Source: Thermoplasmata archaeon
Lineage (GTDB): Archaea > Thermoplasmatota > Thermoplasmata > UBA10834
NCBI GenBank assembly: GCA_041479325.1
Contig: JBGOXV010000001.1
Location: 1 to 50,542 of the forward strand
Reading direction: 5' to 3'
Length of the DNA: 50,542 bases
A program made the position numbers and the translations under genes. The notes below the pieces were generated by a model. That model ran no database searches, was not told the origin of the DNA, and saw only the letters and a list, made by a program, of their open reading frames with translations. Below, piece after piece: positions 9,058 to 35,508 of this stretch (its first letter is position 1; the number at the start of each line of letters is the position of its first letter).

Positions 9058-9061
9058 GTCT

Positions 9062-10858: not shown

Positions 10859-10873
10859 TCAGATCACTGTCGA

Positions 10874-11260: not shown

Positions 11261-11300
11261 CGGTCGAGGCGGGTTGGGAAGTTCCGGGATCGGGGGCGGA

Positions 11301-11450
11301 TCACTTGCCGTGCCTCGACACCTCCTCCTTGAGCATCTTGATGTCCCTGTCTATCCTGCGCTGCCTCAGGTACATGTACCCGAGGAAGGAGAATAGGCCG
11401 AGCCAAACGATCGAGTAGGCAACATACAACGCAGTCCACGAATCCGACAT
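11301..11450 (-). CDS. ccmD: CcmD-like small membrane protein (49 aa, not in the ORF track)
   Basis: My own translation of the minus strand gives MSDSWTALYVAYSIVWLGLFSFLGYMYLRQRRIDRDIKMLKEEVSRHGK*. That is one TM helix followed by a basic/charged tail, in the canonical ccmC-ccmD-ccmE position. Its ATG shares one nt with the ccmC stop (TGATG). Confidence 0.6.
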   Translation of the reverse strand: MSDSWTALYVAYSIVWLGLFSFLGYMYLRQRRIDRDIKMLKEEVSRHGK

Positions 11451-12580: not shown

Positions 12581-12581
12581 G

Positions 12582-13262: not shown

Positions 13263-13972
13263 ACGATCCCTCCCTCGGAGGAGGCTCGGTAGCCCGCTTC
13301 GAGCTCGCCCCTGGTTATGGACGCTCGGTCGAATGACCGTTCGATCTTCCCATGGACAAGCACCTCGGCTCGATCGGCCAGCGATGATATCCTCTGGATA
13401 TCATGCGTCACGATCAGAATGGAGCAACCCCTCGATCTCTCCTCCGTCAGTATCTGTGAGAGCACCTCGTTCCCCTTCTCGTCCAGGGAGGAGAAGGGCT
13501 CGTCGAGAAGTAGCACCTTGGGAGAATGGAGGATGGCCCTTGCTATCGCGAGCCTCTGGCGCATCCCCTTGGAGAATACTGCGACGCGGTCGTTCATACG
13601 ATGGGACAGCCCCACGCGCTGAAGGAGCGCCTTGCCCGCAGCTTCGAAGTCCTTTCCAGGCAGGCCGTACAATGACCAGAAGAACCTGAGGTTCTCGAGT
13701 GCCGTGAGGTCGTCGTACGTGTAGGTCGAGTGCCCCACCACCCCGATCGATTTCCTTGACATCACGGGATCGTCGTAAACGCTCTTGCCGTCAAGGAACA
13801 CATCGCCCCGGGTAGGCTCAGCGAGAGTCGACATAAGGCGCAGAAGGGTGGTCTTCCCCGCGCCATTGGGTCCCATCAAGGCGACAATCTCGCCATCCTC
13901 GATCTTCAGATCGAGGCCGTCCAGGACTGTGCGTCGTCCGAATCGCTTTGTCACGGTCCTGGCATCTATCAC
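13259..13972 (-). CDS. ccmA: Heme exporter ATP-binding protein CcmA (ABC ATPase)
   Basis: Walker A GPNGAGKTT, signature-like FSKGMRQRLAIA, and Walker B LLLDEP. It is the first gene of the ccm operon, with GGGGAGG upstream of the ATG. Confidence 0.85.
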   Translation of the reverse strand: MIDARTVTKRFGRRTVLDGLDLKIEDGEIVALMGPNGAGKTTLLRLMSTLAEPTRGDVFLDGKSVYDDPVMSRKSIGVVGHSTYTYDDLTALENLRFFWSLYGLPGKDFEAAGKALLQRVGLSHRMNDRVAVFSKGMRQRLAIARAILHSPKVLLLDEPFSSLDEKGNEVLSQILTEERSRGCSILIVTHDIQRISSLADRAEVLVHGKIERSFDRASITRGELEAGYRASSEGGIV

Positions 13973-14086
13973 CGATTGCCTCCCCTGGATAGACCCTGAG
14001 AATCTAACTGCCGGTATATCATCCCTTTCAATGCCATGCGAATAGAGCCGAGACCCAGGAGCGGGGGGCGACAGCTAGGGACATTG

Positions 14087-14092
14087 AAAAAA
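14087..14092 (-). terminator. Oligo-T tract downstream of the multiheme cytochrome gene
   Basis: On the minus strand a T6 run within a T-rich stretch (CTTTCTTTCATTTTTTC) lies about 25 nt after the stop at 14115. Archaeal terminators are typically oligo-T. Confidence 0.35.
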
Positions 14093-14114
14093 TGAAAGAA
14101 AGAGGGAAAGTGTT

Positions 14115-15869
14115 TCACTGTTCCTTTTCCTTAGGTGTCTCAGACGCTTTCGTCTCAGTTGCCTTCGTCTCAGGTGCCTTCGGTTCCTGTCTCCTCCGCA
14201 TGAGGAGCAATCCGATGACCGACGCCACTACGATGACGATGATCATTGCCGCGATCAGACTCAAGGCTTCAGTCGACAGTCCTCCAGCAGCCTTCATTGC
14301 GATCGATTGGGGGCTCACCGTGTTCGTGATCTCGTTTCCGTTGCTATCGACGGCCGTGACGTACACATAGTATGTGCCCGCCTTGAGATTCGTTATGGTA
14401 ACGGTGCTGGTCGACTTGCCATCCAGTTGCAGCCTCCATGCGCTGTCGGTGATGTTCGCCTTCGAAGAGCTCAGGACGTATATCCTGTACTTCGAGAAGT
14501 CCGAAGCATTGCTAGGAGTCCAGCTCACCGTGATCTGTCCGTGTCCATCATCTGTCACCTGTATGCCGGTGATCTTGTCCGGCGGCGTCAGGTTCGCTAT
14601 GGTGCTGTTCGAGCGTGCCATCGAATCGACCAACAGCTCATCTGCCAGGCCCGGGTTGTGGTTGCCCTGGCTCATGTCCAGGTCCACGGAGTCGAGGTTG
14701 AAGCTGGCGATCTTGTACTGGGTCATCCAGTCGCTGAGGTTTTCCCCAGTCCTGTTCCCTGCCATCTGCTTGATCGCTGCTATTGCATCGTTCAGGAGCG
14801 GCTTGCTTATCGCGAGCTGTCCGTCCGTCTTGGTGGCAACGGAATCGATCACCTGCTGCGCCTGACTTGCGTTCGTCAGGTCGGGCAATTGTCCTGTCCC
14901 ATTGTGACACGTCAGGCAGGCCGTTGCGTTGGGCAAGAAGGTGTGGTTGGGCAGCCCCGCGTTCTCAAATCCCAAATGGCAGTTGAAGCAGGACACATCG
15001 ACCATGTAGCTCGTTGTTGATCGGTCAATGCCGAATCCTGCGGTGTTGTTCCTCATCTCAGCCATTGGATGATGTGGCTTCGCGCTGGGCTCACTGGCGT
15101 ATGTCGCCCCGTACGCATTGTGGCATTTCTGGCATATCTCAGTCCTGTCGACCCTGAGCTGTGCGAATCCGCTGGGACCCATGCTGTGCGGATCATGGCA
15201 TGTCGGGCATCCAATCTCCCAGGTCAGGGGCGCGTCCTCGCTCCCGATCCTGTAGCTCGTCCTGAAGGATCCCCCTTCGATCAGCTTCATAGCCATCCAT
15301 GATTCGTGGCAGTTGGCACACTGGACATTGTTCTTGATGTAGTCCGGAAGTCCTACTTCCGCGTGGCCGGACATGTTCCACTCGTTGTATGTCGGGTGGT
15401 GAGTCCCGCCAACGGTGCCAGTGTGGCATGAACCGCAAAGGCTGGAGTTCAAGACGAGGCCGATCGTCTGCAGCTTCTGGCCGGACGATGCTACCTCGTG
15501 CAAGCTTCCTGGTCCGTGGCACACCTGACAGCTCACGTTAGTCAGGTAGCTCGGCGTTCTGCTCGTGACGTTGAACCCCGTGGCGGGGTATATGCCAGGA
15601 TGTCCTCCTGCCCCTACCACATGGCACGGCATGCACCTTGTAGCTCCACCAATCACATTCAGATATGCACTGGCGTGCAGTGTCTGGTTGAAGGTGGCGT
15701 TTAAGTCAGCATGGCAGCCGATTCGTGCACAGGTGTCGTTCGGCACATAGCTAGCTGTCGTGGGCGGAGGGCCCGCTTGGTTGTTAGGCAACTGGAGCAT
15801 TATAAAAATCAAGACACCTAGAGCGCACAGGCCAAATGCCAGTGCGATTTTCCATGTCCTTATGCTCAA
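14115..15869 (-). CDS. Membrane-anchored multiheme c-type cytochrome (8 CxxCH plus 1 CX4CH) with a C-terminal FN3-like domain and TM anchor
   Basis: Heme motifs counted in the translation: CMPCH, CQVCH, CGSCH, CANCH, CPTCH, CQKCH, CFNCH and CLTCH, plus CARIGCH. It has an N-terminal hydrophobic signal and many N-x-S/T sequons. The FN3-like segment is ITGIQVTDDGHGQITVSWTP...YRIYV...GTYYVYVTAVDSNGNE. A C-terminal TM helix is followed by a basic/ETK-repeat tail. It has a TTG start with AAGGAGGG immediately upstream. Confidence 0.9.
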   Translation of the reverse strand: MSIRTWKIALAFGLCALGVLIFIMLQLPNNQAGPPPTTASYVPNDTCARIGCHADLNATFNQTLHASAYLNVIGGATRCMPCHVVGAGGHPGIYPATGFNVTSRTPSYLTNVSCQVCHGPGSLHEVASSGQKLQTIGLVLNSSLCGSCHTGTVGGTHHPTYNEWNMSGHAEVGLPDYIKNNVQCANCHESWMAMKLIEGGSFRTSYRIGSEDAPLTWEIGCPTCHDPHSMGPSGFAQLRVDRTEICQKCHNAYGATYASEPSAKPHHPMAEMRNNTAGFGIDRSTTSYMVDVSCFNCHLGFENAGLPNHTFLPNATACLTCHNGTGQLPDLTNASQAQQVIDSVATKTDGQLAISKPLLNDAIAAIKQMAGNRTGENLSDWMTQYKIASFNLDSVDLDMSQGNHNPGLADELLVDSMARSNSTIANLTPPDKITGIQVTDDGHGQITVSWTPSNASDFSKYRIYVLSSSKANITDSAWRLQLDGKSTSTVTITNLKAGTYYVYVTAVDSNGNEITNTVSPQSIAMKAAGGLSTEALSLIAAMIIVIVVASVIGLLLMRRRQEPKAPETKATETKASETPKEKEQ

Positions 15870-16146
15870 CCCTCCTTACCATTTCCCCGGTGGATACCGA
15901 GGCTTGAGACCTAAAACTATTACAGCGTTATATACTTGACGACTCATCATCCGTAAAGCGCGTACGGACAATGTGCGAATATGTTGGATCGGCTCACCGC
16001 CAGAAATGGAAGGTCTGAGGCAGACCCGAATCCGTCCTGTGCGAAGTGTAAGTCGAGTGTGGAGAAAGGATAATAACGGTGCAAACAACTCGGTGGGCCG
16101 CGCAGGAATAGCACCGATTTCAGAGGGAAGTTGGGGGAAGAAAGAC

Positions 16147-17085
16147 ATGCATCCGAGAGGAAGAATTGCATTACTGACATTCATCTGCTTGTCGATCGTG
16201 ACCGTCACGCTCGCGCCGTCGCTCTTGGCCACACCAGGCGGTGTCGCGAGCTCGAACCAGCTGTACGACTGTGGAGGATCCTGCCACAACAAACCGAGCA
16301 CTGCATCGATCACAATGTGGGCTTCCGCGCACCAGGTCGCACCTGGCGGACTAGTGGACGTCATCGTCAACGTTTCGGGAGGGCAGGCAGTCAACATCCT
16401 CGGCGTGATGATCGTGTCGGTGGCAAGCCCGGTACAGGCGAGCAACCCGACGGCACCAGAGAATGGGTGGGTAATCAGATCGGACCCAGTCGGAGGCACT
16501 TTCAACTACTATGAGAACACCACCTACTCGGGGTCTACATCAATGCGTTGGCAGCTGGACGCGCCCCTGGTCATGGGTTCCTACACACTCTATGCAAGGA
16601 TGATGCACGGCGGCGGAGCTGCCTATGCAGCAGACTACTCAGCTGGCGTCAGTTTCCTTGTCGGAACCATAAGCACTACCGGCCCGACCGTGCTCGTGAC
16701 TGCTCCAGCAACTGGAGCCGAGGTGAAAGGCGTCGTTCCCATCGAGACGACCGTCCTGGGCAACGCATCGCTCAGGTATGTCGTACTGAAGCTGGACGGG
16801 GTGGAGATCGCGAACAAGACCACTGGGCCGTTCACTTGGTCCCTCGAATCCACCATCTACAAAGATGGCGTGCACACGCTGAACGTGACAGCGGTGGATG
16901 TCAACGGGAAGGTCGGGTATCACGAGATAACCATCACCATCAACAATGCGGGGTCCAGTAGCGGGCTGCTTGCTTGGGTGTGGACAATGGCCGCAGGAAC
17001 CGTGGCCATTCTTGCATGGATTGGAGTCCTGATGGTCGTCGCGCTTATGGTGCGCCGGAGACACGTCGAAGGGGGGATGAAGTAA
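16147..17085 (+). CDS. Secreted, C-terminally anchored protein with a single CX3CH motif and an Ig-like domain
   Basis: The start was set at ATG 16147 (MHPRGRIALLTFICLSIVTV, signal-like), preceded by GGGGG. It has a CGGSCH motif near the mature N-terminus and an Ig-like repeat (VLVTAPATGAEVKGVVPIETTV...VHTLNVTAVDVNGKVGYHEITITINN). A C-terminal TM helix is followed by RRRH. Confidence 0.6.
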   Translation: MHPRGRIALLTFICLSIVTVTLAPSLLATPGGVASSNQLYDCGGSCHNKPSTASITMWASAHQVAPGGLVDVIVNVSGGQAVNILGVMIVSVASPVQASNPTAPENGWVIRSDPVGGTFNYYENTTYSGSTSMRWQLDAPLVMGSYTLYARMMHGGGAAYAADYSAGVSFLVGTISTTGPTVLVTAPATGAEVKGVVPIETTVLGNASLRYVVLKLDGVEIANKTTGPFTWSLESTIYKDGVHTLNVTAVDVNGKVGYHEITITINNAGSSSGLLAWVWTMAAGTVAILAWIGVLMVVALMVRRRHVEGGMK

Positions 17086-17926: not shown

Positions 17927-18136
17927 ATGGCCATGCGCTTATCAGGGACAAACTGCTGGATCACCACGAAGTGCGCCAAAGACAGTGACGAATACGCCAC
18001 ACACGTGTTCTGCATGAGCAGGCTAAGGGGGCTCAAGTGCCCTCGAGAGGGAAGCGCGGGGACCAAGCCCTACGAGCTGAGCCTTGAGTGCTTCAAAGCC
18101 GTCCAGGTCCCCAAGAAGAAGACGAGGAAGCCTTGA
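17927..18136 (+). CDS. Small Cys-rich basic protein (hypothetical)
   Basis: The 69-aa ORF from ATG 17927 (the track uses GTG 17918) has 5 Cys and a His (NCWITTKC...HVFC...LKCP...LEC), a KKKTRKP tail, and strongly G/C-biased third positions. Confidence 0.4.
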   Translation: MAMRLSGTNCWITTKCAKDSDEYATHVFCMSRLRGLKCPREGSAGTKPYELSLECFKAVQVPKKKTRKP

Positions 18137-18185
18137 ACAATGGACTCACAAAGGATTTCTACCCGCGAACTCTACCTGGGCTAGC

Positions 18186-19154
18186 ATGCCGAACCTGAAC
18201 GCCGCGGTCCTGGGAGCTCCCGAGTATGCAAAAGGGATCGGAAAGTCGTCGACCGCTTCCGACATCACTTTCTACGACGTGAAACAGGGCGAGGTGACCG
18301 TCTCCCTCGTCGAGCCCACGAAGTACCCCGAGAAACTCGCCCCTCTATTCTACTCGACATCGCTCGCGGACGTCGCCATCGTCGTCGTCGACGAGTTGAA
18401 CCCGGCTTTCGGTGAGACCGTGATCATGCTCGACTGCGTGGGCGTGAAGAAGGGGTACTTGGTCCTCAGGAACTACATCGCGCCCGAGCAGATCGCCCCC
18501 TTTACGAAGGGCACCTCCCTGGAGGGATACACAGTGGTGGACGATGATCCCCTCACGCTGAGGGAGACACTACTCTCTGAGGCCAGGAAGTTGATCCCGG
18601 AGGAGCCGAACGCGAAGAATCATGCAGGCTCTGTGCCTGTAGACCACTACTTCGATGTGAAGGGCGTCGGGACTGTCGTCCTGGGATGCGTCGCCGAGGG
18701 GGCGATAAGAAAACACGATTCCGTCAAGGTCCTGCCTTCGGACAAGCAGGCGGAGATAAGATCCATCCAGAAGCACGATGACGATTTCGATTGGGCAGTC
18801 AAAGGGGACCGGGTCGGGTTCGCGCTCAAGGGGGTCTCGATCGAGGAACTCGACCGTGGGACCGTCCTGACGAATAACGGAGCCATCATCTCCCGGAGGA
18901 ACATAACCGGACGCGCAGAGCTGGTCAAGTACTGGACGAAACCCCTGGCCGTGGGTATGGTCGTGCACCTCGGACATTGGATGCAGTTCGAGCCTGCCAG
19001 GATAGAATCCGTGGACGCAGGCAGTGACTGGAAAGCGCCCGTGCTCACGCTCTCTCTCCAGAAGGACCTCGTGTACATCCCAGGCTCGAAGGCCGTGGTC
19101 ACATATCTTGAGGGATCGAAGCTCCGCATAGCTGGGACCATCACACTACAGTGA
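18186..19154 (+). CDS. EF-Tu/SelB-family three-domain protein with degenerate GTPase motifs
   Basis: The start was set at MPNLNAAVLG. A domain-II beta-barrel signature (VPVDHYFDVKGVGTVVLGCVAEGAIRKHDSVKVLP...IRSIQKHDDDFDWAVKGDRVGFALKGV) and a domain III are present. The G1, G3 and G4 positions read GAPEYAKGIGKSS, VEPTKY and LRNY instead of GHVDHGKS, DxPGH and NKxD. Confidence 0.7.
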   Translation: MPNLNAAVLGAPEYAKGIGKSSTASDITFYDVKQGEVTVSLVEPTKYPEKLAPLFYSTSLADVAIVVVDELNPAFGETVIMLDCVGVKKGYLVLRNYIAPEQIAPFTKGTSLEGYTVVDDDPLTLRETLLSEARKLIPEEPNAKNHAGSVPVDHYFDVKGVGTVVLGCVAEGAIRKHDSVKVLPSDKQAEIRSIQKHDDDFDWAVKGDRVGFALKGVSIEELDRGTVLTNNGAIISRRNITGRAELVKYWTKPLAVGMVVHLGHWMQFEPARIESVDAGSDWKAPVLTLSLQKDLVYIPGSKAVVTYLEGSKLRIAGTITLQ

Positions 19155-19379
19155 TACCTCGATTTGTCGCGAGATTCATTCTCGACCGGGTATCGTCCGT
19201 ATTTATTCTGAAGGCACGAACAAACGAGCGAACCCATGGGGCCGTCGGGTGAATGACAGCAACGCATGTCCAGCTCGCAATGTTGAGTGTCCTACACGAA
19301 ATCGATTTATAGCGTACAGTCGTTCAATTCTCGTCCATCTCTGTTCCTGAACGGAACAGGAGAACTGGGAGGAACGAGT

Positions 19380-22300
19380 GTGGGTGAGCCTGCGAATCAT
19401 CGACTCAGGGCTGTGCTGTGTGCCTCAGTGGCGCTCGTCATGGTTCTGACGGTTCTGTCATCGATGCAATCGTCATTCGGGAATAACGAGAAGAGAGGTG
19501 CGGAGAACCTCGCGAACGGGTCCCGGACGTTCAACGTCGGCGCAGTTGATTACATGACAAGCGTAGCGACTTTGAATCCGTTCGTGTCCACAATGTCCGC
19601 GGAGTACGAGACCATATCCCCTTGTTACAGCACGCTACTGACCTATGACGTGAATGCCAACCTCATTGGTGACCTGGCTACATCGTGGAGTCTCGCGCCG
19701 GATAGTCTCACCTGGAACTTCAAGTTGGCTCAGAACGCTCACTTCATTGATCCTGCATCGCCTCTGTCGACGGCCCACCAGGTCACAGCCACGGATCTCA
19801 TGTGGACCCTCTGGGAAGTGAACAACGATACCGGCAACCACCTTTCATCCTACCTCCGAATCGCCGGCGCGGGCGTCATTGCCAAGATGTGGACCGGGAC
19901 TGACCAGTGGGATCTGTATGTCAAAACGAAGACCCCCTATGCTCCGTTTATTGGCGCATTGGCAAAGATCCCAATCGTGCCCGAGTACATCTGGGGCCAT
20001 CTGGTGGGGAGGACACCTCTGACTTATGCAAACCTCCCGCCCATAGGGTCCGGACCGTTCTACTACGGCTCGACGGGGTTGCCGGCTACCGTGGGCATCC
20101 TGAAACGGAATCCGCAGTGGTTCCAGGAGGCAAACAGGGGTTGGCAGATTCACATCGACACGCTTCAGTTCAAGAACGAAGTCAGCGCTGACACAGCCTG
20201 GGCTGATCTGACGGCGAGCCCTCCCCTGATAGATACCTATCTCAATGTCGCTACGGACCAGTTCATTGCACATCTGGTCGACGCCACAACCCCCGGAGTT
20301 ATCGGATGGGCTCAGAGCACGGGTTTCGTCTACGAGTATCAGCTCAACCAACTTGACCCCGCCCGACGCATCTTGTATGAGAACGCGGGGCTGATGAGGA
20401 AGGGCGGGACGAGCAACCCGCTCCTGCTTGACCCGACCGTCAAGCTCGCGATGGCCATGTGCGTGGACAAGCAGGCATTCATCGACCAAGTCCTCAGGGG
20501 ATTCGGCTCCGTTGCGGATTCGCTCGTGCCAGACTGCAACCCGTGGCACTACACCTGTCCGAACCCCGTACAGTTCAACCCGACTGCTGCAAGGACCCTG
20601 TTGAACAACGCTGGCTGGGCCTACGACTCGACCGGCGCATACAATCCAAACGGACCCGCTCCTCTGTATAAGAAGGGAGCTACGAATAACACGGTCTATC
20701 AACCACTCTCCTTCCGCTTGATGAGTCTTAACACGGCCGCGGAGTGGGCAGCTGGCAGCAATCTGCTCGCCCAGTGGGCCGCACTCGGCGGCGTCCAGCT
20801 GAACGTCACTATAATCTGTGTGTGCGTGGCGAACTCGCTCTGGTACGCGGGCGACTATGATACATGGCTGTGGGACTGGGTGTTCACACCGACCTCTGAC
20901 CCGAGCACGGACTGCCTGTTGGTGGACACGACGATGGAAATCGGTTGGTGGAGCGGCTCCTATTGGAGCAACGCGACCTATGACGCGCTGTACAACGCGT
21001 CGCTCGTCGCGACCGACCCGACGACCCGCCGCCAGCTGACGAATCAGATGCAAGCGATGCTCTACGAGGACCACAACGACCAGCTCATCGCGTACGCCAA
21101 GTCCCTCTATGCCGCGAACACCTACTACTGGAATGGGTCGAGCTACGGTGACTGGGCCGCGCACTGGGCGCTGATGCCGGACCAGGGATATCCATGGCTC
21201 TACATGCAATTGTCTCCGACTGACAACCACGCCCCCACCGTGACGACGGTTTATTCGAGCGTCATCGGATTCGAAGGCACGTCGTTTTCTCTATCGGGCT
21301 CGGCTGTCGACGATTCGTCCACGCTGAAGTATCAATGGTACTGGGGAGATGGATCGGTATCGGGGTGGCAGGCGAGCGCGAGCATGTCGCACACATACTC
21401 CACACCTGGATACTTCACGGCCTACCTAGCTGCTCAGGAACAGGGGACGGCCGACGGGTTCATAGGATGGAACCAGACGACGGTAGTTGTTGTTAGCAAC
21501 AACCTGCCACCTGTGTTCGGCAATCCACCGATAATCATGAGCCCTTCGACGGGGATCAACACCGCTACCGTGGTCACCTTCACCGGGCAGGCGGCCGACC
21601 CGGAGGGTGACCCTATCTACTACTATTGGGACTTCGGGGACACCTTCGGGGCCACCGGTCCAGTAGTGACTCACCAGTTCACTTCGGTCGGCAACGGCCC
21701 GTATACGGTGAAGTTGACCATAACCGACAACATACCAGGAGCCCCGCCGCAGGTGGCGACGAAGTTGGTGTCTGTGGCGCTCAACCAAGCGCCGCAGCTG
21801 TCACTCCCGAGCGCCAAGACTGTCCTAATACACACGCTGACGACTTTCACGGCCTCTGCATCAGACCAGGACGGCGACCCAATGAGGTTCACATGGGTTT
21901 GGGGCGACGGGAACACTTTGGTGACTACGACGCCTTCCGCAACGCACTCGTATGCGACGCAGGGCGCGAAGACCCTGGTCCTGTATGCTGACGATCGCAC
22001 GGGACTGACGGGCCACAACGTGAGCGCAACGGAAGCAGTCAATGTGATCAATGGCCCACCGACGCCGCCGTTCGGTGTGACGCTCTCTGCGACCCCGCTC
22101 TCGGTCTGGGCCGGACAGGTCGTGACCTTCACGGGATCCGCTCAGGACCCCGGTGGTGACGCGATGTACTTCAACTACACCTTCGGCGACGGGACCTACA
22201 CTATGGCTGCCAACGGTCCCACGAATCCGAACCAGATCGTGATCAACCAGACCACGCACGCCTACGCGGCCGCGGGTACGATGACGGCGTACATGACCGC

Positions 22301-23144
22301 ATCGGATGGTCTGTCCACCACGAGGTCGAGCAACGTGTTGATCACCGTGACTCTAAACAGCCCGCCGGTTGTGACCCCGCAGACGGCCAAGCAGGCCAAC
22401 GCGGGCGCCTCCGTGTCCTTCTCGGCCACGGCAACCGACGTGGACGGGGACACACTGAGGTACACGTGGGACTTCGGGGACGGCAGCCCGCTGGTGGTGT
22501 CGAGAACCACGACCCACACATACGCGAAGGCAGGGATGTACACCTTCACGGTATACGTCGACGACCTGACCGGTCTCACGGGACACAACGTGACGAGCTC
22601 GGCAACGGCCTCGATCGCGTTCAACCTCTACCTCGTGGCCGGCTGGAACTTCATATCAGTGCCTCTTGCCGGTTACGGATACAAGGCGAGCACGCTCGGC
22701 CTGGCGACTGGTGACGTGATTTCTTCATGGAACTCGACCACCCAATCCTACGACCATACCTACATAAAGGGCATCTCTCCGCCTGTTATGGACTTCCACA
22801 TCGCCCCGAGCGCAGCCTACTGGGTCTGGGTACCTGTCGCGAAGACGCTCCACCTCTATGGAACCGTCCCGACGACCATGCAGACCTTTTCGTTCACCGT
22901 CCCGTCTGGCGGCGGCTGGGTCTCGTTGGGCCTCTTGGGGCTAAAGACCAGGCACGCAAGCGACATCCCCGCGATGTATTCTGGTCCAGGGTCCATCGTA
23001 ATGGCAGCGTACTACAACACGGTCACTCAGAAGTACACCGCCTGGATCTCCGGGGTGCCGACGCTGAACAACTTTGTCCTGGTCCCTGGACTGGGGTTCT
23101 GGTTCTGGGCTACTGCGAGTGGGACAATCTCGTACATGCCCTGA
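19380..23144 (+). CDS. Secreted family-5 solute-binding-protein domain fused to five PKD domains and a shared roughly 175-aa C-terminal domain
   Basis: I prefer the GTG start at 19380, with GGGAGGA 6 nt upstream. The track start is GTG 19287. It has a signal-like LRAVLCASVALVMVLTVLS. The SBP_bac_5-like region shows typical patterns (LLTYD.N..LIGDLATSW...D..TW.FKL, and NPQWF). Five PKD motifs are present: YQWYWGDG, YYWDFGDT, FTWVWGDG, FNYTFGDG and YTWDFGDG. The C-terminal domain spans 22620-23141. Confidence 0.8.
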   Translation: MGEPANHRLRAVLCASVALVMVLTVLSSMQSSFGNNEKRGAENLANGSRTFNVGAVDYMTSVATLNPFVSTMSAEYETISPCYSTLLTYDVNANLIGDLATSWSLAPDSLTWNFKLAQNAHFIDPASPLSTAHQVTATDLMWTLWEVNNDTGNHLSSYLRIAGAGVIAKMWTGTDQWDLYVKTKTPYAPFIGALAKIPIVPEYIWGHLVGRTPLTYANLPPIGSGPFYYGSTGLPATVGILKRNPQWFQEANRGWQIHIDTLQFKNEVSADTAWADLTASPPLIDTYLNVATDQFIAHLVDATTPGVIGWAQSTGFVYEYQLNQLDPARRILYENAGLMRKGGTSNPLLLDPTVKLAMAMCVDKQAFIDQVLRGFGSVADSLVPDCNPWHYTCPNPVQFNPTAARTLLNNAGWAYDSTGAYNPNGPAPLYKKGATNNTVYQPLSFRLMSLNTAAEWAAGSNLLAQWAALGGVQLNVTIICVCVANSLWYAGDYDTWLWDWVFTPTSDPSTDCLLVDTTMEIGWWSGSYWSNATYDALYNASLVATDPTTRRQLTNQMQAMLYEDHNDQLIAYAKSLYAANTYYWNGSSYGDWAAHWALMPDQGYPWLYMQLSPTDNHAPTVTTVYSSVIGFEGTSFSLSGSAVDDSSTLKYQWYWGDGSVSGWQASASMSHTYSTPGYFTAYLAAQEQGTADGFIGWNQTTVVVVSNNLPPVFGNPPIIMSPSTGINTATVVTFTGQAADPEGDPIYYYWDFGDTFGATGPVVTHQFTSVGNGPYTVKLTITDNIPGAPPQVATKLVSVALNQAPQLSLPSAKTVLIHTLTTFTASASDQDGDPMRFTWVWGDGNTLVTTTPSATHSYATQGAKTLVLYADDRTGLTGHNVSATEAVNVINGPPTPPFGVTLSATPLSVWAGQVVTFTGSAQDPGGDAMYFNYTFGDGTYTMAANGPTNPNQIVINQTTHAYAAAGTMTAYMTASDGLSTTRSSNVLITVTLNSPPVVTPQTAKQANAGASVSFSATATDVDGDTLRYTWDFGDGSPLVVSRTTTHTYAKAGMYTFTVYVDDLTGLTGHNVTSSATASIAFNLYLVAGWNFISVPLAGYGYKASTLGLATGDVISSWNSTTQSYDHTYIKGISPPVMDFHIAPSAAYWVWVPVAKTLHLYGTVPTTMQTFSFTVPSGGGWVSLGLLGLKTRHASDIPAMYSGPGSIVMAAYYNTVTQKYTAWISGVPTLNNFVLVPGLGFWFWATASGTISYMP

Positions 23145-23429
23145 TGACCATCAGTTCGATTCCGTCAACATGCATCTTGACGAGAGCATGCGGGTTCAAC
23201 CATCATCTCCTGCGCCCAGCTGTGAGAAGGTCTGAGGAGGAGATTACCGCATCCCTGATCAGCATTTCGAGATCGCATCTCGGGGGGGCTCGAACGGAAC
23301 GCCTCCGATAGTGTCAACCGACGAGGGCCGCCCGAAATCGGTGCGCCTGAGAATGACGGGGACGAGGCCGCATATAAAAGAGAATGAACACTTTTCGGCG
23401 TAGTCAGTATCATTCTAGAAGAAGAACAG

Positions 23430-23440
23430 TTGATATATGA
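23430..23440 (+). promoter_or_regulatory. TATA-like box upstream of the 23472 gene
   Basis: TTGATATATGA lies about 35 nt upstream of the GTG start, followed by a GGGGGG Shine-Dalgarno-like run. The element is conserved in the duplicated copy at 26258-26266. Confidence 0.4.
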
Positions 23441-23471
23441 TAAGTGAGATGCCTGACGGGGGGAAAGTTTA

Positions 23472-26051
23472 GTGCGCAACGCACAGTTTTCTCAAGATGA
23501 TGTAGCGCGTGGCTCAGGACATGTGGATATTCCGCCCGCGAAATCAGCTTCGTCGGGCGAGCCGTGGAAGAAGTTCATGGCCTTCACCGTGGTGTTGATC
23601 ATGGTGGCTGCAGGATTCGTGATACTGGCACCGACTTTGGCACCGAGGCACGCCAAGGCTGTTCCCAGTGATCCTCAGGAGAACCAAGCGAGCATATCGA
23701 TTGGGGGAACTAGGCAGGTCACCTATACGATATCGAGCATGTTCGAATCGTACCAGAAGCAGAACGATTCCACCCATAGCTGGCAGGGAGCCGCTCCAGG
23801 CGTAAACAGCTGGTGGCCCGCAAGACAGGTCACGTATGGTGATGTGGTCGTGCGGAGCGCGTTCCCCTACGTCATAGGATACAACCCCTACGCCTCTGAG
23901 GTGCCAGGCGCAGGTGTGACAATACCCCTGATGAAGTACGGATTGTACACATTCTACAGGACGACCATAGATGCAAAGAGCCTCACCAATATCGGTACGG
24001 GCCCGGGCAAGGAGGCAGTCTTCTTCCCAATATTGTACCCATCGTGGACGACCGGACTGGGACTAGCCGGCGGCTGGATGAACTTCTCCTATTACCTGAC
24101 CTACACCACAGCGGCGGAGGAGACTGCCATCACGAGCGGGACTAGTTGGGCCAACTCCTACTATGGCGTGTCGCCAAACGAGTTCAACTTCCAGGGTGCT
24201 AATGGGGACGACGGCTGGTATATCGAGTTCCAAGGAAAGGCGGACTTCAACATGGCGGCAGCGAAGAAGTTCCTGGGCTTGACCGGGAGCGCGGACCTCA
24301 GGACCCAATTCAACGCCAACAACACGGGCGCGAACCTAGGCAAGATGAACGCTACATTGGCCAATTTCTTGGTCCGCGACGGTAGCAACACTGGGTTCAA
24401 CGACACCTACGCCTCATATGACTTCTCGCTCGACCTCTATCCGTTCACCGTGTGCCTGTCTGTGGATCCAAGCTCCACCGCGACGAAGCTCGTCCTCAGG
24501 ATGTACACGATATGCTGGGGAATCGAGTACCTCATGAACAGGTATTTGGACCGCGTTGGCCTGATGTCGTCTCTTGTCACATCACCCGAGGACTGGTACC
24601 TGAACGGAACAGTCGGGCCAGCTGGCGCCGACATATACTCGAGGTACGTCTCTGTCTACAACCTGATGGCCTGGAAGGACCCTGGGTTCTACAGCCCTTC
24701 GTGGCAAATGGAGGTGGCCCACATGGACTACACGCCTAACACAGGCTCGCACTTGGGGACTGGCGGGAAGTGGCTCTCGAGATACAACCCATACATGCCA
24801 ACGAAGTCGATCAAACCGACCTACATGGCATGGAGCCCGGGAACACTGACCTACGGAACGGGCGTGGCATACTGGTACCCACCGATGAACTGGAACCTAG
24901 CGACTGGGGAGACGCTCAATGTCAAGCTCCCACCTGCGAACGAGGGCGTCCTAGGTTATATGCCATATGCCGGCACTGGTACTCAGGACACACTCACAGC
25001 GGGCAAGATGGATGAGCTTCAGAGCCATACTGTGTGGGGCGAGATTGGCCTAGGAACACTCTATCCCGCGAGCCTGAGGAGCAGCACGAACTACAACCAC
25101 GCCACCAAGACCTTGACCATAACCGGTCCGACGAGCTTCCCGAGGAACCCTAACACGGCGTTCCCACTGCTGAACGCGACCGGATCGCCGAACTTCCAGT
25201 TCGACGTCATGCGAGTCAGCGACTACACGATGGCGATCCAGGAAGCGGGACCATACGTCACGGGACAGACATACCACCTGACGTTGACCGCGAAGAACGT
25301 GTCCGGTGCGACTGTGACAGACTGGAACGGCACGATCGACCTGACGGCGACCACGGGCTCGACGCTTGGAGCGACCTCGCTATGGTTTGGGCCCGGAAGC
25401 AACGGCGTTGTAAGCACGACGGTGACGTTCACGGCGAATGGTGCCAAGACCATAACTGCGACCGACAGGAACAACAGCCTCGATGTGTTCCACAGTGTCC
25501 CGATGATGGTGGGTCCGTTCAGCCTGAACCTGGCGGTCGGCTGGAACTTCGTGGCATTCCCCCTGGTGGGTCAAGGATACAAGGCGAGCACGATCGGTCT
25601 GGCGACTGGTGACATGATCTCTTCATGGGCCCCGGCGACACAGAGGTACGACAAAACGTACATCAAGGGTGTCTCTCCGCCGGTGATGGACTTCGCCATC
25701 GCGCCGAACGTTGGATACTGGGTCTGGGTAGCAGCTGCGAAGACGCTCACCATAAACGGAGTCATCCCGACAACCACGCAGAGCTATGCGTTCACGGTCC
25801 CAGCGACGGGCGGCTGGATAGCACTCGGCTTCGAGTCCATGAAAACGACCATGCACGCGAAGGACGTCCCCACGATGTACTCGGGCTCAGGCGCCATCAC
25901 GATGGTGGCATACTTCAACGCTGCCACTGGGAAGTACGTTTCGTGGATCTCCACGGTGCCGAACCTGAACAACTTCCTGCTGACTCCGGGACAGGCGTAC
26001 TGGTGCTGGGTAACTACGAGCCCAGGCGGTACAGTATCGTACGTGCCGTGA
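23472..26051 (+). CDS. Large secreted protein of unknown function (paralogue A): novel N-terminal region, Ig-like domain, and shared C-terminal domain
   Basis: 859-aa ORF. It has a signal/anchor KKFMAFTVVLIMVAAGFVILAPTLAP with an AKA-V cleavage-like site, and is aromatic- and sequon-rich. The Ig-like segment is YHLTLTAKNVSGATVTDWNGTIDLTATTG...VTFTANGAKTITATD. The C-terminal domain spans 25518-26048. I recognise no family for residues from about 60 to 690. Confidence 0.75.
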   Translation: MRNAQFSQDDVARGSGHVDIPPAKSASSGEPWKKFMAFTVVLIMVAAGFVILAPTLAPRHAKAVPSDPQENQASISIGGTRQVTYTISSMFESYQKQNDSTHSWQGAAPGVNSWWPARQVTYGDVVVRSAFPYVIGYNPYASEVPGAGVTIPLMKYGLYTFYRTTIDAKSLTNIGTGPGKEAVFFPILYPSWTTGLGLAGGWMNFSYYLTYTTAAEETAITSGTSWANSYYGVSPNEFNFQGANGDDGWYIEFQGKADFNMAAAKKFLGLTGSADLRTQFNANNTGANLGKMNATLANFLVRDGSNTGFNDTYASYDFSLDLYPFTVCLSVDPSSTATKLVLRMYTICWGIEYLMNRYLDRVGLMSSLVTSPEDWYLNGTVGPAGADIYSRYVSVYNLMAWKDPGFYSPSWQMEVAHMDYTPNTGSHLGTGGKWLSRYNPYMPTKSIKPTYMAWSPGTLTYGTGVAYWYPPMNWNLATGETLNVKLPPANEGVLGYMPYAGTGTQDTLTAGKMDELQSHTVWGEIGLGTLYPASLRSSTNYNHATKTLTITGPTSFPRNPNTAFPLLNATGSPNFQFDVMRVSDYTMAIQEAGPYVTGQTYHLTLTAKNVSGATVTDWNGTIDLTATTGSTLGATSLWFGPGSNGVVSTTVTFTANGAKTITATDRNNSLDVFHSVPMMVGPFSLNLAVGWNFVAFPLVGQGYKASTIGLATGDMISSWAPATQRYDKTYIKGVSPPVMDFAIAPNVGYWVWVAAAKTLTINGVIPTTTQSYAFTVPATGGWIALGFESMKTTMHAKDVPTMYSGSGAITMVAYFNAATGKYVSWISTVPNLNNFLLTPGQAYWCWVTTSPGGTVSYVP

Positions 26052-26257
26052 AGAACCCGTAACGCGTCGAGCCGGGAGATTCCCTCATGGGAGAGGGGGT
26101 CGGCCCGGATCCAAACCCTTTCTTATTCCATATTTCTATCAGCTACGAGATCGAGTCAACGAGAGATGGACACTTTCCCAGCGAAAGCTGAATGAATTGA
26201 AAGTAGGACGAATGAACACTTTTCGGCGTAGTTGGCGTCCGTCATGGAGAAACGCAG

Positions 26258-26266
26258 TTGATATAG
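26258..26266 (+). promoter_or_regulatory. TATA-like box upstream of the 26297 gene (duplicated copy)
   Basis: TTGATATAG lies about 35 nt upstream of the ATG, followed by AGGGGGA. It aligns with the 23430-23440 element. Confidence 0.4.
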
Positions 26267-26296
26267 CGCAACTGACATCCCTAATAGGGGGAATGA

Positions 26297-28906
26297 ATGG
26301 CGCGCAACGAACAGTTTTCAAATGATGGTGCAGTGGGTGGCTTAGCACATGTGGATCTTCCGCCCACGGATTCAGACACGACGGGGCGCAAGATCGCTCT
26401 GAGAGGTACTTCGGGCGAGCCATGGAAGAAGTTCATGGCCTTCACCGTGGTGGTTATCATGGTGGCTGCAGGATTCGTGATGCTGGCACCGGCATTGGCA
26501 CCGAGGCACACCCAGGCGGCTCCCATTGATCCTCAGGAGAACCAAGCGAGCATATCGCTCGGGGGTCCGAGAGAGGTCACGTACACGATATCGAACATGT
26601 TCGAATCGTACCAGAAGCAAAGCGACCCCACCCATAGCTGGCAGGGGGCCATTCCGGGCATGAGCAGCTGGTGGGGAACAAGGTTTGCAACGATGGGTGA
26701 TATGTACGTGCGAACCGTGTACCCGTACGTCATAGGGTACAACCCGTACAGCGCAGAGGTGCCCGGAGCAGGGGTATCAATACCCACGATGAAGTACGGA
26801 TTGTACACATTCTACAGAACGACCATCGATGCGAGGAATCTCACCAAAATCGGCACGGGCCCGGACATGGAGGCAACTTTCCTCCCTATCCTGTACAGCC
26901 CATGGACGACCGGCCTGGGACTGAATGGCGGTTGGATGAACTTCTCCTACTACATGACCTACTGTACCCAGGCTGACCTGGACGCCGCATCGACCGGCAC
27001 GGGTTACGCCCGCACGTACTACGGCGCGACGCCGAGCCAATTCAACTTCCAAGGTGCGAACGCAAACGACGGCTGGTACATCGAGCTCCAAGGAAAGGCG
27101 GACTTCAACATGGCGGCCGCGAAGAAATTCCTCGGTCTGACCGGGAGCGCGGACCTCAGGACACAATTCAACGCCAACAACACGGGGGCCAATCTGGGCA
27201 AGATGAACAGATCGCTGGCGGAATACTGGACCAGCGATGGAAGCAACACTGGGTTCAACGACACCTATTGTTCGTATGACTTCTCAATCGACTACTCGCC
27301 TCTCAAGGTGTTCCTATCCGTGGACCCGAGCTCCACGGCGTCGAAGCTCGTCCTCAGGATGTACTCGATCGGGTGGGGGCTCGAGTACCTCATGAACAGG
27401 TACCTGGACCGCATAGGTCTGATGTCGTCTCTTGTCACGTCGCTCGAGGACTGGTACCTGAACGGAACAGTCGGTCCAACCGGCGCCGACGTATTCTCGC
27501 GGTGCGTCTCAGTCTACAACATGATGGCCTGGAAGGATCCGGGGTTCTACTGCCCTGCATGGCAGATGGAAGTGGCCCACATCGACTACGCGCCGAACAA
27601 TGGCCTTCACGTGAACACAGACGGGAAGTGGAACTCCAGATACAATCCATACATGGCGACCACCACGGTCAAGCCGACATACATGTCATGGACCCCGGGA
27701 ACACTGACCTATGGACATGGTGTGGCATACTGGTACCCACCGATGAACTGGAATCTCTTGGCCGGGGAAAAGCTCACGGTCAAGCTCCCCGCATCGAGCA
27801 AGGGCGTACTGGGCTACATGCCGTATGCCGGTACTGGAATGCAGGACACACTTACTGAAGCCAAAAAGGTGGAGCTGCAGAGCCACACGGTGTGGGGTGA
27901 GCTCGGCTTGGGGAACCTGTATCCCGCTAGTCTGAGGAGCAGCACATACTACAACCACGCCACCAAGACCTTGACCATTACCGGTCCGACGAGCTTCCCG
28001 AGGAACCCCAACACGGCGTTCCCACTGTTGAACGCGACTGGGTCGCCGAGCTTCCAGTTCGACGTCATGCGCGTCAGCGACTACGCGATGGCAATCCAGG
28101 AACCTGGACCATACGTCACAGGACAGGCATACCACCTGACGTTGACCGCGAAAAACGTGACCGGCGCCACTGTGACAAATTGGAACGGCACGATCGACCT
28201 GACGGCGACCACGGGCACGACACTTGGAGCCACCTCGCTGTGGTTCGGGCCCGGAAGCAATGGCGTTGTGAGCACGACGATGACGTTCACGGCGAATGGT
28301 GCCAAGACCATAACTGCGACCGACAGGAACAACAGCCTCGATGTGCTCAGCAGCCTCCCGGTGATGGTTGGTCCGTTCGGCCTAACCCTAGTGGCTGGCT
28401 GGAACTTCATATCAGTGCCTCTTGCCGGTTACGGATACAAGGCGAGCACGCTCGGCCTGGTGGCGGGCAACGTGGTTGCTTCATGGAACTCGATTATTCA
28501 GTCCTACCATACATACATAGTGGGCATTTCTCCGCCGTCAGCTAATTTCGCCATAGCCCAGAACGTCGGATATTGGGTCTGGGTACCTGTCGCGAAGACG
28601 CTCCCACTCTCTGGAATCATCCCAACGACCGCGCAGACCTACACGTTCACGGTCCCAACGGCGGGCGGTTGGATAGCACTCGGTCTCGAGTCCATGAAGG
28701 CGACTTGGCACGCGGAGGACGTCACCACGATGTACTCGGGCTCAGGCGCCATCGCGATGGTAGCGTATTACGACGCAGCCACTTCGAAGTACGTTTCTTG
28801 GATCTCCGCGGTGCCGGCGCTCAACAACTTCCCACTGGCGCCGGGACAGGCGTACTGGTGCTGGGTCACAGCCGGACCTGGCGGGACAATAACTTACGTG
28901 CCTTGA
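26297..28906 (+). CDS. Large secreted protein of unknown function (paralogue B of the 23472-26051 gene)
   Basis: 869-aa ORF, colinear with paralogue A over its whole length. The large majority of residues are identical on by-eye alignment. It has the same signal, Ig-like domain and C-terminal domain (28376-28903). Confidence 0.75.
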   Translation: MARNEQFSNDGAVGGLAHVDLPPTDSDTTGRKIALRGTSGEPWKKFMAFTVVVIMVAAGFVMLAPALAPRHTQAAPIDPQENQASISLGGPREVTYTISNMFESYQKQSDPTHSWQGAIPGMSSWWGTRFATMGDMYVRTVYPYVIGYNPYSAEVPGAGVSIPTMKYGLYTFYRTTIDARNLTKIGTGPDMEATFLPILYSPWTTGLGLNGGWMNFSYYMTYCTQADLDAASTGTGYARTYYGATPSQFNFQGANANDGWYIELQGKADFNMAAAKKFLGLTGSADLRTQFNANNTGANLGKMNRSLAEYWTSDGSNTGFNDTYCSYDFSIDYSPLKVFLSVDPSSTASKLVLRMYSIGWGLEYLMNRYLDRIGLMSSLVTSLEDWYLNGTVGPTGADVFSRCVSVYNMMAWKDPGFYCPAWQMEVAHIDYAPNNGLHVNTDGKWNSRYNPYMATTTVKPTYMSWTPGTLTYGHGVAYWYPPMNWNLLAGEKLTVKLPASSKGVLGYMPYAGTGMQDTLTEAKKVELQSHTVWGELGLGNLYPASLRSSTYYNHATKTLTITGPTSFPRNPNTAFPLLNATGSPSFQFDVMRVSDYAMAIQEPGPYVTGQAYHLTLTAKNVTGATVTNWNGTIDLTATTGTTLGATSLWFGPGSNGVVSTTMTFTANGAKTITATDRNNSLDVLSSLPVMVGPFGLTLVAGWNFISVPLAGYGYKASTLGLVAGNVVASWNSIIQSYHTYIVGISPPSANFAIAQNVGYWVWVPVAKTLPLSGIIPTTAQTYTFTVPTAGGWIALGLESMKATWHAEDVTTMYSGSGAIAMVAYYDAATSKYVSWISAVPALNNFPLAPGQAYWCWVTAGPGGTITYVP

Positions 28907-33753: not shown

Positions 33754-35508
33754 ATGGTCATATCGGAAAAGGGAGGTGGGATAGCGGAGGAAAATCCGAA
33801 ATCAGGGCTGGGGCAGAAGCCGCCGATCTCGAGGAAGCTCATCGCAGTCGTTTTGGTATTGATCATGGTGGCTGCATCCAGCTTCACCGTTTGGTTCGTG
33901 TTCTTCAGGAACTGGACAATCAGAGACGTTGCTGCCGCGGTCATCAACGATACCACCCCGTCGAACCCGGGGTTCAAACATTCCTTAGCAGGGAAGACGG
34001 TGACGGTTGAAGGGAAGATTACGAACATCACGATCGAGCACACGAACCAGGGGGACATCTATCTCGCCGAACTCGATGGCTTCGAAGATTTCAATCTAGT
34101 ATTCTGGGGAGGATTCCCGCACGAGATTGGAAACAGGATCACGGCTAAAGTCAGCTTTGAATGGAGCGTATGCAACGATGAGAGACACGTCTACTCGCCT
34201 CAGATCAGTTTCCCGAACATAATGTCACTCAATTCGATAGACATCATGTCGAATTCATACGATTCGGTAAATGGAGTGCTCCTGACGAAACATGAGCTGC
34301 CGAGCGGGAAAGTGAACGTTTCAGTAGACTACGTTGACGAGCCAATTCCGCTTTCAGTCGCCAATTGCTCCCTGCTCACTGGTAGAGCTAGCTGGGCCCG
34401 CGAGTTGATGGATTTCTTCGGGGCATACAAAGATAACAACAAATCCGACTACATATCAAACCTAACGCAGAACCTCGGGCCAAATGGCACGCTCGCTTTC
34501 ACAGACGCGAACTCTGACGACTATCTGGACAGAGGCGACTACTTCACGATCAGTGGACTTCCCAGACCCAGCATGGAAAGCGGAGCCTACACCTTCATGC
34601 TCTCCGTGGAATGGCGGGAGAGGCTTCCGATGCAAATCTATGACCCCTCCCGTTGGACAGAGGCCTACATAATAATGAATCATAAGGGCCTGATGAGCAT
34701 GCTGGACACGCCCGTTCAAGGTAGGCTCTTGACAACCACTCTCCATGACAAGATGAGAGGCGAACTCGCGTACCTCGAATCTTACAAGGAGGTGCCTTGG
34801 GATGATGTGAGTATCCTCCTAAGTGACGGTAACAACTACGCGACATGGAGTGTGTCTTCTGGCTCACTGAACTCGACGCACGCCATGAATGTCACCCTGC
34901 CCACAAGGCCTCTGGGGGCACTCATGATCTCGTGCAACGTGACGGATCGGGAAGGCAACGGACGATTCGATGTGTCAGATATGACAGAATTGACCTCTAT
35001 CGGCGCTACACATCTCTCGAATTCAACATCATACACGATGACAGTGCTCTACAAGCCGATGGGTACAGAGATTTGTCGTGCTAATTTCTGGCCCGAAGTC
35101 GTCCCAGTCAGCAACATGACCGCATCGATTCTCCAGGATGGACGGAGTCTCACGTTCGGACCGATGCACACGGGGCACAATCTCAGCTACTCTTCCATCG
35201 GCGTGCCTTGGGACGAAATCAGCATCGAGTTGAGCGACGGAAACCGGACGGTCAAATGGACACCGGAAGAAATGGCGCTCGGGACCGGGTCGGCTTGTAC
35301 CGAACCACTCGCAGCTTTGAGTCTTGGCAACATTACCATCCGCTGCAATATCACAGATCTAGATGGCAACGGATGGGTGAACAGAGGAGACAGATTCACG
35401 CTGCGCACGACTGGTCCAGACGAGTTCCCAACCAGTCATATCTATTCTGTGAGAGTTGCCTACGAACCGGTTCCGGGAGACGTCTTCAACTGCACATTCA
35501 GGGGATGA
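33754..35508 (+). CDS. N-terminally anchored extracytoplasmic protein with internally repeated modules (hypothetical)
   Basis: 584-aa ORF with a TM helix at LIAVVLVLIMVAASSFTVWFVFF. Two clearly related modules are VPWDDVSILLSDGNNYATW...ISCNVTDREGNGRFDVSDMTEL and VPWDEISIELSDGNRTVKW...IRCNITDLDGNGWVNRGDRFTL. An earlier, weaker copy is TDANSDDYLDRGDYFTI. Confidence 0.7.
   Translation: MVISEKGGGIAEENPKSGLGQKPPISRKLIAVVLVLIMVAASSFTVWFVFFRNWTIRDVAAAVINDTTPSNPGFKHSLAGKTVTVEGKITNITIEHTNQGDIYLAELDGFEDFNLVFWGGFPHEIGNRITAKVSFEWSVCNDERHVYSPQISFPNIMSLNSIDIMSNSYDSVNGVLLTKHELPSGKVNVSVDYVDEPIPLSVANCSLLTGRASWARELMDFFGAYKDNNKSDYISNLTQNLGPNGTLAFTDANSDDYLDRGDYFTISGLPRPSMESGAYTFMLSVEWRERLPMQIYDPSRWTEAYIIMNHKGLMSMLDTPVQGRLLTTTLHDKMRGELAYLESYKEVPWDDVSILLSDGNNYATWSVSSGSLNSTHAMNVTLPTRPLGALMISCNVTDREGNGRFDVSDMTELTSIGATHLSNSTSYTMTVLYKPMGTEICRANFWPEVVPVSNMTASILQDGRSLTFGPMHTGHNLSYSSIGVPWDEISIELSDGNRTVKWTPEEMALGTGSACTEPLAALSLGNITIRCNITDLDGNGWVNRGDRFTLRTTGPDEFPTSHIYSVRVAYEPVPGDVFNCTFRG

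Follow-up and report, generated by a model that had tools for sequence, protein, structure and literature searches.

Three proteins encoded side by side in a Thermoplasmata archaeon, here named A, B, and C, end in the same domain of about 175 amino acids (aa), and the question is which function this C-terminal domain (CTD) fulfills. The genes are located in the first 50,542 nucleotides of contig JBGOXV010000001.1 (assembly GCA_041479325.1), and this whole stretch of DNA is referred to as the window. The CTD is an internally duplicated domain of a new family. Its place at the C terminus is taken in homologous proteins by an archaeosortase-type signal or by a transmembrane (TM) helix, which points, with somewhat more confidence than doubt, to a new non-transmembrane cell-surface retention module for Sec-exported proteins. 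The coding regions and their parts, all on the forward strand, are as follows.

19287 to 23144, +, protein A: open reading frame (ORF) of 1285 aa with N-terminal signal segment, SBP_bac_5 domain, five PKD domains, and CTD
19410 to 19466, +, protein A: N-terminal hydrophobic signal-peptide-like segment, AVLCASVALVMVLTVLSSM, hydropathy 2.36, preceded by NHRLR; cleavage predicted
19662 to 20903, +, protein A: SBP_bac_5 (Opp/Dpp-type solute-binding) domain, Pfam PF00496, aa 126-539, E 1e-32
21234 to 22601, +, protein A: PKD repeat region, about aa 650-1105, boundaries approximate, Pfam PKD_4 E 1e-55
22620 to 23141, +, protein A: CTD copy 1, 174 aa, hidden Markov model (HMM) E 5e-78; unit 1 at about 22620-22871, unit 2 at about 22872-23141
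23472 to 26051, +, protein B: ORF of 859 aa with signal segment, alpha/beta passenger of about 480 aa, Ig-like domain, and CTD
23574 to 23630, +, protein B: N-terminal hydrophobic segment, FMAFTVVLIMVAAGFVILA, followed by ...RHAKA/VPS (A-x-A-like site), hydropathy 2.72; cleavage predicted
25185 to 25517, +, protein B: Ig-like beta-sandwich, about aa 572-682, directly before the CTD; AlphaFold2 strands at aa 574-680
25518 to 26048, +, protein B: CTD copy 2, 177 aa, HMM E 1e-77
26297 to 28906, +, protein C: ORF of 869 aa, architecture as in protein B
26432 to 26488, +, protein C: N-terminal hydrophobic segment, hydropathy 2.61
28376 to 28903, +, protein C: CTD copy 3, 176 aa, HMM E 5e-73

The CTD is a duplicated beta domain of a new family

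A first-pass annotation, made from the letters of the DNA, had placed a shared domain at the end of the three proteins. The coordinates proved to be exact: the three copies of 174 to 177 aa aligned end to end with a mean column identity of 80% and pairwise identities of 61 to 68%, well above what chance would give. The start motif F.L.L..GWNF...PL.G.GYKAST.GL and the end motif G-T-[IV]-[ST]-Y-[MV]-P-stop were present in all of them, as had been claimed. The HMM scores listed above (E 5e-73 to 5e-78) are those against a profile of 26 sequences, and a six-frame scan with the HMM revealed no further copy in the window.

The domain had also appeared to be internally duplicated, and this was borne out. 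The halves of one copy matched each other in BLASTP (E 4e-4), and a profile-profile comparison (hhalign) of 26 first halves with 26 second halves gave a probability of 99% and an E value of 8.4e-18 over 70 columns. A joint alignment of all halves yielded a common unit of about 85 aa with the pattern phi-x-phi..GW....(P)......A(S)......phi-phi..[WYF][ND]..T..Y..[YW]phi.G..P..[DN]F.phi.PG.[GA]YW.....G.L.Y, which may be rendered alternatively as GW(N)...A(S)...[WYF][ND]..T..Y..[YW]I.G..P..[DN]F.[IL].PG.[GA]YW....G.L.Y. The CTD is a tandem pair of such units. The family, of which A, B, and C are members, is defined by two tandem units of about 85 aa, each having GW(N) close to its start and PG.GYW close to its end, and by a terminal ...SGTL[ST]Y.P; the consensus was drawn from 202 full-length domains.

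An AlphaFold2 model of the CTD, built on a 26-sequence alignment, reached a mean pLDDT (predicted local distance difference test) of 93.5 and a pTM (predicted template modeling score) of 0.87. The predicted fold is all-beta, with twelve strands, of which each unit has six, and a single short helix in unit 2. Aromatic residues are frequent (W+Y+F, 13.9%), whereas charged residues are scarce (9.8%). A hydrophobic segment is absent from the CTD: the maximum hydropathy of any 19-mer after residue 100 was 1.3 to 1.8, compared to 2.4 to 2.7 for the N-terminal signal segments.

Over the CTD, scans of the isolated domain, the full proteins A, B, and C, and more distant members gave no Pfam or NCBIfam match at E<=1, and a profile search of the PDB sequences gave nothing better than E 0.68. 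Foldseek returned no match to the model at E<=0.001, either in PDB (best E 0.09, TM score <= 0.29) or in BFVD (best E 0.03); its weak and non-significant neighbors were lectin, CUB, haemagglutinin, and phage receptor-binding jelly rolls. A full-text search of the literature yielded no account of a domain like this. The suggestion that the domain belongs to no known family has thus stood up to searches of Pfam, NCBIfam, PDB sequences, and the structures in PDB and BFVD, and the CTD is a new family without detectable sequence or structural relatives.

Known terminal signals and cell-wall-binding modules did not match the CTD. The tripartite PEF-CTERM/PGF-CTERM signal did not fit since the three proteins end in ...GT[IV][ST]Y[MV]P, reach only the low hydropathy given above in their last third, and have no basic tail; homologues bearing a PEF tail have a maximum 19-mer hydropathy of 2.1 to 2.6. 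The models TIGR03024, TIGR04126, and TIGR04296 did not match A, B, C, or the isolated CTD at E<=1 in the NCBIfam scan, in which P0251 served as a positive control and scored 26 bits, with a cut-off of 23. The absence of a TM segment and of an archaeosortase-type signal, which had been noted before, is therefore upheld. Por_Secre_tail, the CTD that belongs to type IX secretion systems (T9SS), gave no Pfam or NCBIfam/TIGRFAM match to the domain at E<=1, and the obligate terminal, single-copy placement of the T9SS type was not found, with the domain internal in 7 of 176 proteins and in tandem in one protein. SLH, other cell-wall-binding repeats, and cohesin-dockerin modules were without Pfam match, and the Foldseek values for PDB given above apply to them as well.

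The passengers of A, B, and C

The first-pass annotation had counted three different passengers. The passenger of protein A, composed of a solute-binding protein (SBP) and PKD domains, differs indeed from those of B and C, but the latter two proteins are paralogues with 76% overall identity, so that two passenger types are present. Protein A belongs to SBP_bac_5 (114 bits against PF00496, cut-off 32.4), and its PKD region contains five Pfam stretches, the final one at aa 1024-1103, and W.[FW]GDG core motifs at aa 684, 870, 964, and 1061. OppB/C permease genes adjoining the gene for protein A are absent from the window.

In all three proteins, basic residues precede the strongly hydrophobic N-terminal segment. 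It is long in B and C, about 24 residues, and is followed there by A-x-A-like sites, RHAKA/VP in B and HTQA/AP in C; a helix was modeled at aa 32-46 in the signal segment of B. The passenger of B and C, about 690 aa, matched no Pfam or NCBIfam family. The AlphaFold2 model of full-length B had a pLDDT of 84.4, with values of >90 across most of residues 80-680, and the PDB matches found with Foldseek for this model were to the Ig-like part only (SbsC domains 4-5 and macroglobulin MG domains). The alpha/beta portion of about 480 aa (23700-25180 and 26530-28040), mostly modeled at pLDDT >90, was without match in Pfam, NCBIfam, or PDB folds, and is a second uncharacterized family, always on surface-anchored proteins.

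Exchange of the CTD with membrane anchors in close homologues

Which function the CTD has may be judged best from what takes its place in closely related proteins. Homologues of the B/C family were collected with the passenger of protein B alone as query, resulting in 54 proteins. A CTD was at the end of 21 of these and a PEF-type tail, [PG]EFPTLLIPVIG followed by a hydrophobic (TM) stretch and RRDKKK, at the end of 27; 4 ended in a third, unrelated beta domain and 2 were truncated. The CTD and the PEF-type tail share their junction, which follows the Ig-like domain (...TATD.NNSLDV..., which reads ...TATDRNNSLDV... in protein B). When the EFP tails were compared to the PEF-CTERM model TIGR03024, one passed with 26 bits (cut-off 23) and two others fell below. 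Both types of C terminus were intermixed at all levels of identity, with CTD at 80%, PEF at 77%, both at 74%, and so on down to 35%, which indicates repeated exchange. Archaeosortase C recognizes PEF-CTERM (PMC5244752), and an archaeosortase-type signal is, as judged from these alignments, the evolutionary alternate of the CTD in close homologues. The third domain, present in P0219, P0224, P0232, and P0233 after an extra PKD domain (...GHTYKI.LKQFDGP...TW), stands in for CTD or PEF-CTERM and matched no family.

The same exchange was visible in the SBP family of protein A, for which loci were taken from metagenomes. Six complete ORFs ended in a CTD and two in IPEFP-TM-RRR; a further ORF ended in a plain TM segment with a charged tail, and one in neither. 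The SBP genes were directly downstream of OppB-/OppC-like permease genes in 11 loci, which cover the CTD-, PEF-, and TM-ended types. One and the same SBP in one operon context may consequently end in a TM anchor, in PEF-CTERM, or in the CTD, and the simplest reading of this swap would be that the CTD provides the same retention service by a non-transmembrane mechanism. Upstream of one SBP-CTD gene, an OppC-like permease (L003:1223-2689) bears an extracytoplasmic PKD domain (K319L-like_PKD, aa 66-151).

Archaeal SBPs are normally associated with the membrane, either via lipid anchors or via C-terminal TM segments (PMC3387779). The oligopeptide-binding proteins of Sulfolobus and Aeropyrum, which possess a signal peptidase I (SPase I) signal peptide and a C-terminal TM anchor, belong with protein A to one class, that of SBP family 5 proteins bearing an SPase I-type signal, and have the same need for membrane retention (PMC3387779), but they end in a TM helix, whereas protein A ends in a soluble-type beta domain. 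A homologue of protein A in locus L019 has a C-terminal TM anchor of the Sulfolobus/Aeropyrum kind.

A small CxxCH domain provided a third case, with a PEF-CTERM tail in L004 and with PKD plus CTD in P0096 (BLASTP E 9e-7). Both anchor types occur in one genome, GCA_036704725.1, which encodes the CTD proteins P0023 and P0218 and, of the PEF type, a protein in L004 as well as P0215, a homologue of B, in L025; in L003, a PEF-CTERM ORF is located between two CTD ORFs. An ORF in the window (15973-17085, +) was considered as a TM-anchored homologue of P0096 and rejected because the BLASTP comparison was not significant. It encodes an exported protein of 370 aa in which a CGGSCH motif is combined with a Big_7 Ig domain and, at the C terminus, an anchor of the classical TM plus RRR type, which indicates that the genome of this window also uses plain TM anchoring.

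Size, distribution, and genomic context of the family

An exhaustive search with the CTD profile covered 1.84 billion cluster representatives and found 3,773 of them at E<=1e-3; at the stricter cut-offs of E<=1e-10 and E<=1e-30, the numbers were 681 and 166, respectively. Where the carrier was named, it was almost always a metagenome-assembled genome (MAG) of Thermoplasmata or Candidatus Thermoplasmatota; the label uncultured euryarchaeote also occurred, and one carrier was labeled Thorarchaeota. A profile of the single unit of about 85 aa, used in a word-indexed protein search, returned short fragments of the CTD family only and no annotated distant relatives. Viral contigs gave no match to a degenerate DNA pattern for the CTD, the sensitivity of which was about 40 to 55%; this search thus gave no hint of an uptake of the domain by viruses.

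The CTD occupied the extreme C terminus in 169 of the 176 proteins examined, and these 169 share a conserved end (...SGTL[ST]Y-x-P-stop) with tyrosine at position -3 in 147 and proline as last residue in 132. An N-terminal hydrophobic segment was present in 60 of the 83 CTD proteins that start with methionine. Among the 64 members scanned for passenger domains, PKD (34), NosD/Beta_helix (13), BNR (4), and SBP_bac_5 were found, in addition to FG-GAP, fn3, CARDB, CBM96, Peptidase_C39-like, and multicopper oxidase (Cu-oxidase) domains. The passengers are diverse and, according to their domain assignments, typically of the extracytoplasmic type.

In the distant relatives P0124 and P0034, nearly identical single units of about 85 aa were seen (GWNMIGW...FNASTGDYDSYIEGVSP..F.L.PGTGYF). 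These are positioned in P0124 after the signal peptide and at the C terminus, with eight PKD domains between them. This single-unit layout may be the ancestral form.

CTD genes are clustered: the window has three of them, and L003 and L004 have two each. The genes of the window are framed by an EF-Tu-domain-2 GTPase gene upstream and by leuD/leuC and iorA/B downstream (from 18084-19154 to 31003). Synteny with the window is seen in locus L004, where the EF-Tu-D2 GTPase gene is followed by CTD genes, leuD/leuC, and ior, but where different CTD proteins are encoded. A conserved frame around different proteins suggests that the CTD locus may be a variable surface-protein slot. A small PEF-CTERM "receptor" gene next to the CTD genes was considered and dropped since the candidates in L003 and L004 have only the PEF tail in common.

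Proposed retention at the surface and the evidence against it

The reading favoured here, non-transmembrane retention, describes the CTD as most likely a functional alternative to the PEF-CTERM (archaeosortase C) lipid anchor or to a C-terminal TM helix. The precursor would be exported through its N-terminal signal peptide, and the peptide would be cleaved, as the h-regions and the A-x-A-like sites suggest. The CTD would then fold outside of the cell and bind non-covalently to an abundant component of the envelope; a surface-layer protein, some glycan or lipoglycan, or the membrane's outer face could fill this part. This binding would tether the passenger at its workplace, be it a solute-binding protein, a beta-helix/BNR protein, an oxidase, a PKD array, or another protein.

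A comparison with known systems needs to consider likeness and difference in each case. PEF-CTERM and PGF-CTERM (TIGR03024 and TIGR04126, with ArtC and ArtA) are likewise archaeal and located at the extreme C terminus of Sec-exported surface proteins; the PEF-CTERM-type tail of the close homologues sits at exactly the junction taken by the CTD, and the presumed outcome, surface retention, is alike. Unlike these signals of about 25 aa, the CTD is a domain of 175 aa with a predicted beta fold and has no signature tripeptide, TM helix, or basic tail, so that its mechanism cannot be a transpeptidation of the archaeosortase type within the membrane. SLH, pseudomurein-binding repeats, and CWB/LysM-type repeats are also built of repeated terminal units and tether varied exoproteins to an envelope polymer, although they have no similarity to the CTD in sequence or fold. 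Non-covalent tethering of this kind is the most likely mechanism of the CTD among those considered.

Several observations weigh against a retention module at the C terminus. In seven proteins, the CTD is internal or comes immediately behind the signal peptide, with PKD and CarboxypepD_reg-like domains after it, and P0035 has two CTDs in tandem. Such arrangements indicate that the CTD is an autonomous module, some function of which does not depend on terminal placement. Clustering of 26 neighborhoods did not yield an accessory or receptor gene near the CTD genes; only Opp permeases and housekeeping synteny recurred. For B and C, the N-terminal segments might stay uncleaved and act as signal anchors, in which case a second anchor would be needless. 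The swap with membrane anchors could instead separate anchored isoforms from released or target-binding ones. All organisms bearing a CTD are uncultured, and a role in retention is deduced by comparison.

The first-pass annotation had suggested a module for cell-surface attachment or sorting and had raised the question of whether it is always located at the extreme C terminus. Attachment was strengthened by the terminal position in most proteins, by the unrelated exported passengers, and by the anchor swap in three families, while the exclusive terminal placement did not hold for the seven internal copies, which also weakened the sorting part of the proposal. The association with secretion is retained in these seven, all of them signal-peptide proteins with PKD or CarboxypepD_reg domains.

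It is improbable, though worth weighing, that the CTD marks a new protein-attachment pathway parallel to that of the archaeosortases. Such a pathway would rest on machinery dedicated to recognition or processing or, alternatively, on a specific receptor in the envelope, such as a lipoglycan or, in Thermoplasmata with a double envelope, an outer layer. By means of a fold without detectable relatives, it would organize much of the surface proteome of an entire uncultivated lineage.

Alternative functions of the CTD

Among the alternatives, a folded secretion or sorting signal comparable to the T9SS CTD survives best, although it is to be regarded as unlikely. Dedicated machinery would recognize the CTD, which might then be removed by cleavage, with a covalent lipid or glycan anchor taking its place, or might serve in crossing a second envelope layer. 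Two membranes are reported for some Thermoplasmata, relatives of the Methanomassiliicoccales, and this would agree with such a signal. So would the predominantly terminal position with its conserved end, the exchange of the CTD in position with a true sorting signal, PEF-CTERM, and the all-beta fold, which is also that of T9SS CTDs. As with Por_Secre_tail of the Bacteroidota, a folded all-beta C-terminal domain would be attached to dozens of unrelated secreted or surface cargoes of a lineage. The T9SS, however, is bacterial and dependent on an outer membrane, and its CTD of about 80 to 100 aa is removed by PorU. The archaeal CTD is twice as large, internally duplicated, and sometimes internal or in tandem, and it matches no Por_Secre_tail-type model in Pfam or NCBIfam. 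The internal copies keep the ...SY.P ending although they are not terminal, so that this motif is structural and not a signal that needs a free carboxylate. The tandem CTDs of P0035, the single units at both ends of the distant relative P0124, and the lack of a conserved machinery gene in the 26 neighborhoods also argue against a sorting signal.

A little less probable again is a lectin-like or carbohydrate-binding-module-like function, by which the CTD would bind ligands or adhere to something external (a substrate, other cells, or mineral surfaces) and not to the envelope of the producing cell. Many carbohydrate-binding modules have a similar aromatic-rich, charge-poor composition, internal and tandem arrangements are typical of binding modules, and adhesin-like passengers (PKD, FG-GAP, beta-helix) accompany the CTD. 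The structural neighbors listed by Foldseek, lectin and receptor-binding jelly rolls among them, point in the same direction, but none of these matches was significant. An adhesion module would also not be expected to swap with membrane anchors at one junction in three families, or to be attached to Opp-type solute-binding proteins encoded together with their permeases, which must stay at the cell (PMC3387779).

Self-association, in which the CTDs of different proteins would oligomerize into a surface lattice or coat and the envelope layer itself would be made of CTD proteins, is very unlikely: the pseudo-dimeric duplication, a hydrophobic, low-charge composition suited to protein-protein interfaces, the presence of several CTD genes per locus, and the disordered glycoprotein layer that cultured Thermoplasmatales have instead of a regular S-layer (PMC12448462) would be in agreement with it, but the pTM of the monomer suggests a self-contained fold.

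Other genes in the window

A Ccm-type cytochrome c maturation set on the reverse strand (6913-15869) adjoins the gene of a multihaem cytochrome c of 584 aa with fn3/PPC domains (14115-15869). The Ccm genes of this region are listed below; together with the multihaem cytochrome c, the set may point to extracellular electron transfer in a Thermoplasmata-type archaeon.

6913 to 9081 and 11450 to 12604, -, Cytochrom_C_asm proteins
12582 to 13262, -, CcmB
13259 to 13972, -, ABC ATPase of the Ccm set

Downstream of the CTD genes, a protein of 584 aa (33754-35508, +) combines a TM segment at the N terminus with an internal repeat, VPWD[DE][VI]SI.LSDGN..., and has no Pfam match. A gene of the MttB superfamily (trimethylamine methyltransferase-like; 48962-50419, +) is an uninterrupted ORF of 485 aa, and MttB genes are present in the related loci L005 and L006 as well.

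Meaning for the surface of uncultivated archaea

How archaea without a conventional cell wall retain exported proteins at their surface is only partly understood. Known archaeal solutions are lipoboxes, C-terminal TM helices, and archaeosortase signals, and the CTD appears to be a fourth one, based on a protein domain. On comparative evidence, its role, C-terminal surface retention, would be of a known kind, and the means by which it is achieved has not been described before. The CTD would serve many diverse surface proteins, among them nutrient-binding proteins as well as putative adhesins and oxidases, in an uncultivated archaeal lineage that is abundant in the environment. It allows definition of a Pfam-type family and may be used in genome annotation as a predictor of surface localization, and CTD fusions or pull-downs would offer a handle on the envelope composition of these archaea. 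The natural swaps between CTD and PEF-CTERM make the retention hypothesis directly testable.

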